A program made the position numbers and the translations under genes. Shown piece by piece: positions 22,475-43,825 of a stretch of 64,000 nt of DNA. The DNA is from a phage. The notes beneath the pieces were generated by a model. The model saw only the letters and a program-made list of their open reading frames with translations. It was not told the origin of the DNA and made no database searches. The stretch lies in sequence record PZ452583.1. One strand, 5' to 3'. How positions within the stretch are numbered: the stretch's first letter is position 1; each line of letters opens with the position of its first letter.

Positions 22475-22993
22475 TTAATAGCCTCGATCTTGACGAGCGA
22501 AGTTTTCGGCATTTTTCAGATAATAAAGTTTAAAGATTTCTTCAGCTGACATTCCAAGAGCAATGAATTTATTCATGAAAAAGTGAAATTGGTCAATTAG
22601 TTCAAATTTAATTTCAAGTTGATCTTCAGGAGATAAATCTTGAATTTTCTTGGATTGCATTTCAGAATAACGTTTCTTCCAAGGTTTCCATACAGCAGAA
22701 GCTTCTTTTTCACCATTACTCATACCACCAAGAGAAGTATATAGCTCGCGAGTTTCATCTGCGATATAATCGTCTTGGTTTCGCAACCAAGCAAGAACTT
22801 CTCCTGCAGTTTCAAGTGAATCAGGATGACGATTTGTTTCTGGTTTATCATTAGCCAAACGAATCTGTAAATGCCGCTGCATGTCAAGCATAACCTGCAA
22901 TGGGTCAATACTGTGCATAATATACTCAGCATATGCACGATTTGCTTTATCAACACCTTCGATCAAATGAGCACATTCATTAAAGTGAGCCAT
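22475..22993 (-). CDS. 56: gp56 dCTPase/dUTPase
   Basis: 171 aa from ATG 22991-22993 (MAHFNECAH...); MazG-like; soc-56-dam synteny. Confidence 0.85.
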   Translation of the reverse strand: MAHFNECAHLIEGVDKANRAYAEYIMHSIDPLQVMLDMQRHLQIRLANDKPETNRHPDSLETAGEVLAWLRNQDDYIADETRELYTSLGGMSNGEKEASAVWKPWKKRYSEMQSKKIQDLSPEDQLEIKFELIDQFHFFMNKFIALGMSAEEIFKLYYLKNAENFARQDRGY

Positions 22994-23053
22994 TATTTTT
23001 CCTTTCAATTCATTAATAAGTTAAATAATTATATCATTTGAGTATGTAAGCAA

Positions 23054-24393
<1,340 letters not shown>

Positions 24394-24418
24394 TATATCA
24401 TCCTCAGCAATTTATTTT

Positions 24419-24448
24419 ATAATACCATAACAAGCTGAGAAAGTAAAC
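24419..24448 (-). promoter_or_regulatory. early promoter for the 186-aa ORF
   Basis: GTTTAC (+24443-24448), 18-nt spacer ending TGG, TATTAT (+24419-24424). Confidence 0.55.
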
Positions 24449-24483
24449 AAATTTATGATAAATATTAATTTAAAGGAGGACAT

Positions 24484-28537: not shown

Positions 28538-28882
28538 TTAAAAGAATTTAAACTTTTTCTTTGACCTTTTATTAAATGCATCTTGTAGTTGCATTGTAAT
28601 ACATTTTTCTACATGAGGAGCTAACTCAGCTTTTCTTTCTTGGTCAAGAACAGCAAAGTCCATTACAACCTTTCCATCAACCCAATCCAGTTTAGTTACA
28701 TACACTATATGTGTAGAACCATCTTCTAGTTTAATGACAATCTCCTGGATAACATTTTCCATGGCAGATTTAATTATCTTAAGAGACTCATTAAAAAGAC
28801 GTTCTTTTCTTTCTTCTTCCCCCTCCGAAGAGGGGGATTCATCGATAATTTCTAGATCTAAGTCTAAATCATCTTTATTCAT
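28538..28882 (-). CDS. 40: gp40-position protein (about 114 aa)
   Basis: between 41 and uvsX as T4 gene 40; ATG 28880-28882; acidic N-terminus; identity by synteny. Confidence 0.5.
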   Translation of the reverse strand: MNKDDLDLDLEIIDESPSSEGEEERKERLFNESLKIIKSAMENVIQEIVIKLEDGSTHIVYVTKLDWVDGKVVMDFAVLDQERKAELAPHVEKCITMQLQDAFNKRSKKKFKFF

Positions 28883-30056
28883 TAAATTCTTCCATATCAC
28901 TTAACTGCTCGAGGTCAGTTTCTAAATCAGCTGCTGATTTACTTTTACTTTCTGGAGATTTAAATTTTTCAACCTTTGAGTTAATCAATTCATCAACTTC
29001 AGCTTCAACAATTTCATTACTATCAATAGCACCTAACTGATAAGCACGTTTAATAGCATCTCGGAATGGTTGATGCTTAAATAAAGGACCCCAGAATGTA
29101 GTGCAGTTAGTATCTTTTGCACGCCAAGATTTTTCTTCGCGAATCATCTCGCCAGTTTCTTCGTCAAGAAATTCACGAGCATACCAGCCATTTTTAGGTT
29201 TTACAACAAATCCTAATTCTAGAGCCATATCTAACAATCCAGAATAAGGATCGATACCACCGTCAAATTTAACATCAATAAAGAATTTACTTTTTTCTTT
29301 AACGGTACGAGATTTTTCTACATTTAGAACAAATTGATACCCCTGAAGATCAGAACCATCTTTAATCTGGCGCTTACCGATAATGAATACAGTATCAGCC
29401 GAATACATTACGCCTGTACCACCTGTCATCACGGTTTTACTAAACATTTCAATTGTTTCAATTGTATGGTTAACCGCAACACATGGAATGTTTTTAATAC
29501 TAAAATAAGGAGTAACAATACGGAATAATGACTTCAGTGATTTAGCACGAGTCATATCTGCCACAGATTTTTCATTCAAGGCATCTTCCGTTTCTTTCTT
29601 AGAAGCCATATTACCGATTGAGTCGATGAATACAATAACCTTTTCACCACGCTCAATAGCTTCAAGCTGATTCACCATATCAATTTTCAGCTGTTCAACT
29701 GACTGAATCGGCGTATGAATTACTCGTTCCGGGTCAACTCCCATGGATCGCAAATAAGCTGGAGTAATACCAAATTCACTATCATAGAATAGACAAACCG
29801 CGTCAGGATATTTGTTCAAATATGCCGCAACCATAGTCAAAGACATATTTGATTTAAAGTGTTTAGAAGGACCTGCAAAAATAGTTAAACCAGACTGCAT
29901 GCCGCCATCAATCGCACCAGAAATAGCAATATTAAGCATTGGAATTTTTGTACGAATTACATCCTTTTCATTAAAGAATTTAGATGTAGTCAGTTCAGCA
30001 GTCATTTTAGAAGTGGAAGCTTTAATCAAACGGGATTTTAAATCTGCAATAGACAT
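28875..30056 (-). CDS. uvsX: UvsX recombinase (RecA-like)
   Basis: 393 aa; Walker A GPSKHFKS; recognisably UvsX. Confidence 0.92.
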   Translation of the reverse strand: MSIADLKSRLIKASTSKMTAELTTSKFFNEKDVIRTKIPMLNIAISGAIDGGMQSGLTIFAGPSKHFKSNMSLTMVAAYLNKYPDAVCLFYDSEFGITPAYLRSMGVDPERVIHTPIQSVEQLKIDMVNQLEAIERGEKVIVFIDSIGNMASKKETEDALNEKSVADMTRAKSLKSLFRIVTPYFSIKNIPCVAVNHTIETIEMFSKTVMTGGTGVMYSADTVFIIGKRQIKDGSDLQGYQFVLNVEKSRTVKEKSKFFIDVKFDGGIDPYSGLLDMALELGFVVKPKNGWYAREFLDEETGEMIREEKSWRAKDTNCTTFWGPLFKHQPFRDAIKRAYQLGAIDSNEIVEAEVDELINSKVEKFKSPESKSKSAADLETDLEQLSDMEEFNE

Positions 30057-30133
30057 TCATTTTTTCCATAGGCATCATTATATTTTCCTCACTGGTTAAA
30101 GATAGAGTAATTATAACACAATAAATTTAGGCA

Positions 30134-30976
30134 TTAATCAACTGCTATTGGATGAATAGCATTAAACTTATGAAATGCTTCTGATTTTTCTTTACGTGAA
30201 ACGCACATGCGAAGAACCTTTAATGGTTCGTCTTCTTCACCCAACGATTTTCGTTTTTCAATATTAGAAGTTTTCCAACGAGCTTGCTCTGGAAACTCTC
30301 TATTAATCTGCTCAAGCGCTCTATTATGTTTAGAATTACTACGAATTGAACTGCACCCGCCAGGAGCTTGTGCTTTTCCAGATACAACTAGATATTTGAA
30401 CAAGGCCAAATGCGGATAACCTTGATTAATTAAATTGAGAAATGCATACATATCTTCGCATAAATCAATTTTTCCATACCCAATTTGTTCTGTCGTAAGT
30501 TTTCCGAGGTCATACCATGTATTCGTGAATCCATATGAATTTTCACGATAATTACCCCAAGATGAAGTAATTTTAAAAATAGGTAGACGAGCATGGCCAT
30601 GATAATACCCGCAATCCATGGCATCCTCAACATATTGAATCAATTCATAGAACTGTTCACGAGTCAATTGATTGACTTTATCTACGCAACGACGATCATC
30701 TCTTTTTCGCATTGAACTCATACGAATAGTAGTATCATCGTCAATCATCCAGATTCGTTGACCTGCATACATATCGGTAATTGCTTTACGAGTACCGGCA
30801 ATTCCGTTTACATCATCAGGAATAGTTATAATTTTAGCTCTAGACCCATAAGCGTCATGATAAGCTTTTTCTTCATGTTCACGCACTACAATATGCGGTT
30901 CATAATCAGTCGGAAACATATCAAGGGCAGAAACTGCCCTGACACGCTGATAACTTGGAATTACGAATTGAATCAT
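30134..30976 (-). CDS. GT-A fold glycosyltransferase in the beta-gt slot (candidate beta-glucosyl-HMC-alpha-glucosyltransferase)
   Basis: DxD motif (IWMIDDDTTI) and GT2-like N-terminus (FVIPSYQR); ATG 30974-30976 overlaps gene 42 stop; not T4 beta-gt-like. Confidence 0.65.
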   Translation of the reverse strand: MIQFVIPSYQRVRAVSALDMFPTDYEPHIVVREHEEKAYHDAYGSRAKIITIPDDVNGIAGTRKAITDMYAGQRIWMIDDDTTIRMSSMRKRDDRRCVDKVNQLTREQFYELIQYVEDAMDCGYYHGHARLPIFKITSSWGNYRENSYGFTNTWYDLGKLTTEQIGYGKIDLCEDMYAFLNLINQGYPHLALFKYLVVSGKAQAPGGCSSIRSNSKHNRALEQINREFPEQARWKTSNIEKRKSLGEEDEPLKVLRMCVSRKEKSEAFHKFNAIHPIAVD

Positions 30977-31713
30977 TTCCACTCACCTTTATAGTCTTTT
31001 TTCACAATATGAGTTTCGCCAGTATTCCACCAATGATCAACCAAGTAAAAATGACGAGAATATACATGAAGACTTCCGACATTCCATATAATAGAACCTG
31101 CTTTATACTGACGAGTTGAATCGCCGGCATTCAAATCAGATACTAATTTATCTAATACGTATTTTTGCCATGCATAATCATTACGGAATCCGAAGACCAC
31201 GTCATTTGAGCGCATGCTTACTACTGCATTGACTTTCTTATCACGAATCAGGTACTGTACTGTATTAGTACACATGAAATCTGACATACCATCTTTATTG
31301 TAGTCAAATTGCATGGATGGACGAGTATAAATCATGATACCACGTCGAGAATCAGGATTTTGACCAAGTTCAGCTAAACACATATCATACTGGGCATAGT
31401 TATCTTCTGACCAAATAGCCCAACCATAATTCGAGTTAATTTCGCCTTTAGAAGATGCTACCTGCTGCCAAATCTTTGGTGTTTCACCTGGAATATCTTT
31501 AACAAACAAGCTCTTAGATTTATACCATTCAAGTTCACGTTGAATGTATTCATCATTAAGAGCGCCAAAAATAAACGGTTCATCTGCTACAAATGATGCG
31601 CCAATAATTTCAATAGTTTTAACACCAGTTTTATCAACTACGAAATCTTTTTCTTTTAATGCAAGCCCCAAATGAAGACGGATTTCTTCAACTGTCATAG
31701 AGTCACTAATCAT
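30973..31713 (-). CDS. 42: gp42 dCMP hydroxymethylase
   Basis: 246 aa; sequence recognisably T4 gp42. Confidence 0.95.
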   Translation of the reverse strand: MISDSMTVEEIRLHLGLALKEKDFVVDKTGVKTIEIIGASFVADEPFIFGALNDEYIQRELEWYKSKSLFVKDIPGETPKIWQQVASSKGEINSNYGWAIWSEDNYAQYDMCLAELGQNPDSRRGIMIYTRPSMQFDYNKDGMSDFMCTNTVQYLIRDKKVNAVVSMRSNDVVFGFRNDYAWQKYVLDKLVSDLNAGDSTRQYKAGSIIWNVGSLHVYSRHFYLVDHWWNTGETHIVKKDYKGEWK

Positions 31714-42606: not shown

Positions 42607-42624
42607 AAAGGGCCGAAGCCCTTT
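42607..42624 (-). terminator. AAAGGGC-UUCG-GCCCUUU hairpin at a-gt stop
   Basis: 7-bp stem with UUCG loop overlapping the a-gt stop codon. Confidence 0.5.
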
Positions 42625-43825
42625 ATTTTGTAATAATGTCAAACTGTTCTTTAAAGCAGAAGCTTGAATCTTGATGCTGATACAAAAATTCATAAGCTTT
42701 TTCGCGTTCACGGTCATAAAGAGTTCGGTCAGATGACAGTTCTTTAATACGCTCGAATGTTGATTCCATGTCATTTTCATCAAACCAAATGATACCGCTA
42801 TCATGCGAGGTCAAAGGAGTATTATCAACACGGAATTTTAAATTTTCGCCAGTAGATTTCCAAAATACCGGAATTGTTCCACATGCACCAAGCTCGAGAT
42901 GAGTATATTCTAAAGAACGTTGTAGATATTTTTTGTCCAACTTACTCAGCTGATAACCAAAACCGGATTTACTCATGCGTTCAAGCATTTCGCTATTTAC
43001 ATAACGGTCAAGAATTTGCGTTGGCAAATTAGGAGCAATTTTAATTTGGTCTACTTGATGAAGACGATAATACTCGTATGGAATTCCTTTTTCTTTAATA
43101 GGAATGAACGCTGGAGAACGTTCCAGACCTTCCATAATAGTACTTAGTCCTGCAGGTTTAAGATGTTTTTCATGAAAATCAAACATCTGATAAAAACCTT
43201 TCCATGTAGTCGTACGACCAATCCAACGGTTGATATTCATGTTAATTTCAGAAACATCTTTCCAGTAGGTTGACCGAACCTTCGCAATATCCATAGGAGG
43301 CTGAAAGTTATATACTGTCGGTGCTTCTTCAATATCATCAAACAGAGAAACTGTTTCAGGATACCATTCTTTCATCAGAACTTTATTAAAATCACCATTA
43401 TCAGAATGGCTAAAAATAACATCAGCTCGACGAACAGTTTCTTCTAATCCCAAATTTCGGCGCAAAGAAAGAGAAGAATGGTCATGTTGATAAACTACAA
43501 CACGAACAGAAGGTTTAATGTTATCAATAATTTTTTTATAGTTATTAATAGTGTCTTCTTCAACCGAAGTAGCAGGAACTGAATTGATAATTAGAATATC
43601 ACAATCATTTACCAGCTTAAGTGTTTTATCATATTCTTTTGCCAATAAAACCGGAATTGAAAATGATTTATAATCATGCGCGCAATTACGAGTAAATGAT
43701 TTATCTTTAGCATAAACCAAAGTTACTTCATGACCATTTTTAATAAACCAATCACGTTGCTCGAGTGAGAATTTTGTTACACCACAACCTTCAAGACCTC
43801 GAGCCATAAAAATACATACTTTCAT
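42623..43825 (-). CDS. a-gt: alpha-glucosyltransferase
   Basis: 400 aa; sequence recognisably T4 AGT (...CIFMARGLEGCGVTKFSLEQRDWFIKNGHEV...). Confidence 0.9.
   Translation of the reverse strand: MKVCIFMARGLEGCGVTKFSLEQRDWFIKNGHEVTLVYAKDKSFTRNCAHDYKSFSIPVLLAKEYDKTLKLVNDCDILIINSVPATSVEEDTINNYKKIIDNIKPSVRVVVYQHDHSSLSLRRNLGLEETVRRADVIFSHSDNGDFNKVLMKEWYPETVSLFDDIEEAPTVYNFQPPMDIAKVRSTYWKDVSEINMNINRWIGRTTTWKGFYQMFDFHEKHLKPAGLSTIMEGLERSPAFIPIKEKGIPYEYYRLHQVDQIKIAPNLPTQILDRYVNSEMLERMSKSGFGYQLSKLDKKYLQRSLEYTHLELGACGTIPVFWKSTGENLKFRVDNTPLTSHDSGIIWFDENDMESTFERIKELSSDRTLYDREREKAYEFLYQHQDSSFCFKEQFDIITK

Follow-up and report, generated by a model that had tools for sequence, protein, structure and literature searches.

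A probable T2/T6-type beta-glucosyl-HMC-alpha-glucosyltransferase gene between uvsX and gene 42 of a mosaic Tequatrovirus

The locus under study lies in the sequence record PZ452583.1, from which a stretch of 64,000 nucleotides of phage DNA (the window) was analyzed. It consists of an open reading frame of 280 codons, referred to here as ba-gt (also ggt), which is flanked by uvsX and by gene 42. The features considered in this work are all on the minus strand, as follows.

22475 to 22993, minus strand: gene 56, dCTPase/dUTPase, by which unmodified dCTP is kept from entering the DNA; a divergent allele (tblastn with RB51 gp56, 70.9% identity, full length).
28875 to 30056, minus strand: uvsX recombinase, the downstream neighbor of ba-gt; matches PF21134 and PF00154 (RecA).
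30134 to 30976, minus strand: ba-gt (ggt) coding sequence, very probably a beta-glucosyl-HMC-alpha-glucosyltransferase (TAGT family, GT-A fold); 843 nt, 280 amino acids plus stop.
30734 to 30742, minus strand: GACGATGAT, the codons for the DxD motif D79-D80-D81, which would bind metal and nucleotide sugar.
30973 to 30976, minus strand: ATGA, the ba-gt start codon overlapping the gene 42 stop codon (30973 to 30975).
30982 to 30989, minus strand: Shine-Dalgarno-like AAGGTGAG inside gene 42 at its 3' end, with 5 nt between it and the downstream ba-gt ATG; a putative function, read from the sequence.
30973 to 31713, minus strand: gene 42, dCMP hydroxymethylase, the source of the hmC precursor; PF00303 (thymidylate-synthase family), 99.6% amino acid identity to RB51 gp42.
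42623 to 43825, minus strand: a-gt, DNA alpha-glucosyltransferase, full length; PF11440 with an E value of 4.3e-237, 100% amino acid identity to RB51 a-gt.

The initial annotation had placed the gene at 30134 to 30976 between uvsX and gene 42, and these limits are exact, with the ATG at position 30976 of the minus strand. The reading frame delimited by the program begins with a GTG (30134 to 30982), and the ATG at 30976 was taken as the start, as annotated in RB51 and T2. This start indeed overlaps the stop codon of gene 42, with the sequence ATGA at 30976 to 30973, and the annotations of T2, RB51, Geo, EL, BGP, and Solly show this 4-nt overlap as well. The overlap indicates that ba-gt is probably translationally coupled to gene 42, with which it would share a transcript. 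A spacer of 77 nt (30057 to 30133) separates ba-gt from uvsX. In T4, the homing endonuclease gene segA sits between uvsX and beta-gt (L003:3571-4236), whereas segA is absent between uvsX and ba-gt in the window. A scan for promoters and terminators around ba-gt gave counts no higher than those in shuffled sequence, and therefore no regulatory claim is made for this gene. An Rfam scan of the whole window retrieved no matches at the gathering thresholds. A 7-bp GC-rich hairpin (AGGGCAG-TTT-CTGCCCT, 30924 to 30940, minus strand) falls within codons 13 to 18 of ba-gt. Its outer pair is A-T with the R13 codon AGG that is private to the window allele and G-T in the G13 alleles (GGG). The hairpin may be due to chance, or it may have an effect on translation initiation.

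The DNA of ba-gt is 100% identical to the gene of three independently deposited phages, RB51, RB68, and Ac3, and the gene is present in 475 phage genome records at a DNA identity of at least 90%. In RefSeq, the RB51 gene is named beta-glucosyl-HMC-alpha-glucosyltransferase, and a note there describes it as "similar to T2, T6 b-gluc-a-gluc transferases." The window protein aligns with the T2 enzyme over 280/280 residues at 98.6% identity, the four differences from window to T2 being R11H, R13G, H40Y, and P251S, and four substitutions distinguish it from the T6 allele, the lesions of the T6 records (described below) aside. The Solly enzyme is 99.3% identical and differs at R13G and H40Y only, and the orthologue of TadeuszReichstein (MZ501106), which we take to be Bas37, is 98.6% identical. 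Only the RB51/RB68/Ac3/teqhad group has R13 and H40, at two positions where the family as a whole varies strongly. In a Pfam scan, the protein matches PF20691 (TAGT) alone, with 42.3 bits against a gathering cutoff of 27.5 and over model positions 2 to 205 of 205. It matches PHROG 842 at 2.4e-88, and an NCBIfam scan of the protein gave no family matches.

The same gene occupies the same slot between gene 42 and uvsX in T2 (LC348380) and in T6 (MH550421 and AP018814), which confirms for both phages the earlier statement that this slot holds a beta-alpha glucosyltransferase. The T2 and T6 genes (LC348380, MH550421, and NC_054907; named "b-gt" in some records) have in common with the window gene the length of 280 amino acids, the position, the ATGA overlap, and the alpha-gt partner. 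The close full-length identity, the position, and the finding of alpha-gt but not beta-gt in the window all place the protein among the T2/T6 orthologues (PHROG 842). The open reading frame thus very probably encodes a T2/T6-type beta-glucosyl-HMC-alpha-glucosyltransferase (ba-gt, ggt; Pfam TAGT) that acts in the gentiobiosyl-hmC pathway. The gene is already known, being named in RefSeq and carried by hundreds of sequenced Tequatrovirus genomes, and the primary cloning paper for the T2/T6 enzyme is reportedly that of Winkler and Rüger (NAR, 1993). The proteins of RB51 and RB68 have already been tabulated as ba-gt homologues with 99% identity (PMC6024577, Table 1). Most T4-like coliphages have ba-gt at this same spot, where it is an ordinary gene, and the combination of an alpha-GT with a TAGT is the usual one. 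T4 is the unusual phage, and the initial description of ba-gt as a replacement of T4 beta-gt likely has the direction backwards.

The lack of resemblance to T4 beta-gt that had been pointed out earlier holds. Identity with T4 beta-gt was ruled out, because the best BLASTP E value is 2.2 and PF09198 is not matched, and a tblastn search of the 64-kb window with T4 beta-gt found nothing (best E value of 1.4). None of the close relatives carries beta-gt (PMC6024577, Table 1). T4 beta-glucosyltransferase (PF09198, GT-B) and ba-gt share the slot beside gene 42, the UDP-glucose donor, and a beta linkage on phage DNA, but they are unrelated in sequence and fold, and the acceptor of the T4 enzyme is bare hmC, whereas that of ba-gt is alpha-glucosyl-hmC. 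Kinship with ORF003c of RB69, a putative arabinosyltransferase, was also ruled out. Of the alignments proposed in the initial annotation, those with T2 and T6 gave the near identity described above, and that with ORF003c revealed no similarity (best BLASTP E value of 1.1). ORF003c is, like ba-gt, a second DNA sugar transferase of a T-even-type phage, but its locus is between rIIA.1 and gene 39 and its sugar is other than that of ba-gt. It is GT-B-like according to HHpred (PMC6024577).

None of the deposited genomes is identical to the window over its full length. The best match reaches ∼97.8% over 24 kb, which indicates that the phage is a mosaic Tequatrovirus whose ba-gt allele is of the RB51 type, and the identity of the window to RB51 ranges from 92.8% to 98.5% by segment. 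The gene 56 product, at 70.9% identity to RB51 gp56 versus 93 to 100% for the neighboring genes, marks a locally divergent mosaic segment; it also matches PF08761 weakly, below the cutoff. Adjoining gene 56 is a gene for a Dam-type N6-adenine DNA methyltransferase (23054 to 23833, minus strand; PF02086, 7.9e-51), which is part of a stretch of ∼1.4 kb (23014 to 24472) that is not found in RB51 at the same position. Given this gene, the phage DNA probably also carries m6A. A 186-amino-acid open reading frame beside it (23833 to 24393) has no Pfam match.

The family around the window protein was collected by an exhaustive HMMER search, which retrieved 330 relatives at an E value of ≤0.001. A word-indexed homologue search gave 11 proteins, and the deep alignment was built instead from the exhaustive search of representatives. 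It comprises 60 sequences, namely, the window protein and 59 full-length relatives that are 19 to 64% identical to it. The motif IWMIDDDTTI, which had been read as a DxD motif, corresponds to residues 75 to 84, with the three aspartates at D79 to D81. These are conserved as aspartate in 59, 60, and 59 of the 60 sequences, respectively, which shows that the DDD motif is not a chance match. Residues D80, D175, G186, and G207 are invariant in the alignment (60/60), and D79, D81, G206, and R212 are each kept in 59/60. R11 is kept in all 59 of the 59 aligned family members. Close to these values are I6 (57/60), E35 (55/60), and P7 (54/60).

An AlphaFold2 model computed from the 60-sequence alignment is confident, with a mean pLDDT of 93.8 and a pTM of 0.92. 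Beta strands and helices alternate in this model, and the DDD motif comes directly after the strand formed by residues 74 to 78. The single Rossmann-like alpha/beta/alpha nucleotide-sugar-binding domain, together with the conserved DxD motif, agrees with a GT-A fold. By analogy with such enzymes, D79 to D81 would bind the divalent metal and UDP. In GT2 enzymes, the "ED" motif provides the catalytic base. From established knowledge of GT-A enzymes, the invariant E174/D175 "ED" pair is likely the catalytic base of the window protein. Because a beta linkage would be formed from UDP-alpha-glucose, an inverting GT2-like mechanism is expected. In agreement with this assignment, the T6 TAGT has been modeled as a fold of the GT-A superfamily, in a sister group of GT2 (PMC13216743, 2026).

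The TAGT family (PF20691) and the window protein share the conserved motifs IPxYxR, DDD, ED, and GGC. The family owes its name, TET-associated glycosyltransferase, to members that adjoin TET/JBP dioxygenases, whereas the member in the window would act after a thymidylate-synthase-type hydroxymethylase and a first glucosyltransferase of the GT-B type, with no TET enzyme. The distance from cellular GT2-type GT-A enzymes is large, with sequence identities to the window protein of just 8 to 15% for TarP (6h1j), SpsA (1h7l), and AvpGT (9jma), and a comparison of PDB sequences with the family profile gave no matches at an E value of ≤1. The cellular enzymes also differ from ba-gt in that the acceptor of ba-gt is a sugar on duplex DNA.

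The chemistry of the gentiobiosyl-hmC product has been known since the 1960s. Beta-1,6-glucosyl-alpha-glucosyl (gentiobiosyl) hmC amounts to ∼5% in T2 and ∼72% in T6, in both cases made by homologous ba-gt enzymes (PMC6024577). In ten Tequatrovirus phages from Durham, HPLC/MS detected 5-hmdC, alpha-glucosyl-mdC, and alpha-gentiobiosyl-mdC and no beta-glucosyl form, and a TAGT was noted in these phages in the place that corresponds by synteny to T4 beta-gt (PMC13390438). One of the DNAs analyzed in that study by HPLC/MS, that of Solly, contains about one-third 5-hmdC and about two-thirds alpha-5-gentiobiosyl-mdC, again with no beta-glucosyl form (PMC13390438). Phages with near-identical enzymes thus show gentiobiosyl-hmC and no beta-glucosyl-hmC, in line with the proposal that the sugar pattern of the window phage differs from that of T4. 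The consequences for host defense that had been proposed are also borne out in the orthologues. Deletion of ba-gt from T6 leaves alpha-glucosyl-hmC only and increases the sensitivity to Brig1 (PMC11078745). BapA frees glucose from the DNA of a T6 g-gt (= ba-gt) deletion mutant but not from wild-type T6 DNA, and the glucose of gentiobiosyl-hmC cannot be stripped by BapA (bioRxiv 10.64898/2026.02.25.707755), and the Bas37 orthologue helps in the evasion of Mokosh type I (bioRxiv 10.1101/2025.11.20.689424).

The genes of the window would support the same route. The gene 42 product would make hm-dCMP, and hmC would enter the DNA during replication, after which the alpha-glucosyltransferase of the same window would put alpha-glucose on most hmC. 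Since a-gt is full length in the window, the acceptor of ba-gt, alpha-glucosyl-hmC, can be made. On the basis of the characterized orthologues, we infer that the window protein transfers a second glucose from UDP-glucose onto the alpha-glucosyl-hmC of the DNA, in a beta-1,6 linkage to the first, to give gentiobiosyl-hmC. The second glucose would conceal alpha-glucosyl-hmC from defenses that read or remove single glucoses, such as Brig1 and BapA.

How far the second glucosylation proceeds differs between phages. Geo (L006:3869-4711), BGP (L009:199-1041), and EL (L010:4119-4961) have one common ba-gt allele that departs from the window allele at nine residues (R13G, H40Y, I50V, M89I, R95K, C97R, V101I, A202S, and Q203H), and for all three phages, hmC, glucosyl, and gentiobiosyl forms have been reported in an intermediate ratio of 1:2:2. 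Among near-identical enzymes, the second glucosylation is ∼5% in T2, ∼40% in Geo, EL, and BGP, and ∼67 to 72% in Solly and T6. Given this wide variation, the ratio is not fixed by sequence alone.

The same enzyme could therefore, in principle, give a T2-like output in the window phage, with mainly alpha-monoglucosyl-hmC (∼70%) and a few percent gentiobiosyl-hmC. The 98.6% identity to the T2 enzyme and the ∼97% identity of the window to T2 across 24 kb speak for such an output, as does the span from ∼5% to ∼70% diglucosylation among near-identical enzymes. It is nevertheless improbable, because the T2 gene (LC348380, L002:4295-5137; PV648363, L012:101-943) is the high-output Solly allele with R11H and P251S as the only changes, and the window allele has both R11 and P251. 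Moreover, R11 is kept in every aligned homologue, and the DNA segment that encodes His-11 is confined to seven T2 records and SV76; an independent T2 stock has His-11 too. The window allele carries R13 and H40, as in RB51, RB68, and Ac3, and it has neither the R11H and P251S of T2 nor the lesions of the T6 records. The substitution of a family-invariant residue in R11H may make the T2 gene a hypomorphic allele, which may lie behind the ∼5% gentiobiosyl-hmC of T2, and the R11 of the window allele suggests diglucosylation at the level of T6 and Solly. The broader proposal, that small allelic differences in ba-gt set the ratio of mono- to diglucosylated hmC in T-even phages, is a tentative one and somewhat doubtful at present.

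A different specificity within the same family, be it another sugar, direct action on hmC, or a beta-glucosyl acceptor, is very unlikely for the window protein. In many phages, a TAGT homologue is accompanied by a beta-GT or is the sole GT, a distribution that points to varying specificity across the family (PMC13216743; PMC6024577, Table 1), but those homologues are at most 65% identical to the window protein. The window protein is 98 to 99% identical to the enzymes of phages with measured DNA chemistry, and it is accompanied in the window by alpha-gt, without beta-gt.

The two independent T6 genomes on public record are both damaged in ba-gt. In MH550421 (L004:4138-4980), codon 10 is a TAG amber codon (Q10amber) and the gene is annotated from Met20, and in AP018814 (= NC_054907; L005:4135-4974), an in-frame deletion has removed one of the aspartates from the nearly invariant DDD motif (D79 to D81), so that the RefSeq "T6 TAGT" is the 279-amino-acid deletion form. 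Laboratory stocks of T6 appear to be losing ba-gt. Such lesions show that laboratory stocks can acquire damage to this gene, but that the window gene is itself inactive or dispensable, a decaying remnant, is hardly credible, as its open reading frame is intact and full length, contains all the invariant family residues, and recurs unchanged in three phages deposited independently.

An active T2/T6-type ba-gt is thus the preferred reading, and its presence predicts the composition of the phage DNA. By analogy with the phages of known chemistry, we infer a modification ratio of ∼25 to 33% bare hmC, about two-thirds gentiobiosyl-hmC, little alpha-monoglucosyl-hmC, and no beta-glucosyl-hmC, a sugar pattern that would be like that of T6 and Solly and unlike that of T4. 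If small allelic differences do set the ratio, R11H would account for the classical puzzle that gentiobiosyl-hmC is 5% in T2 and 72% in T6, and the nine-substitution allele of Geo, EL, and BGP would explain their intermediate 1:2:2 pattern. The window allele would then be fully active, and the DNA would be T6-like despite a genome that is T2-like overall. With respect to host defenses, the phage is predicted to be relatively resistant to alpha-glucosyl-hmC glycosylases of the Brig1 type and to BapA, and to keep its sensitivity to enzymes of the GmrSD/BrxU type and to 5hmC glycosylases such as Brig3.
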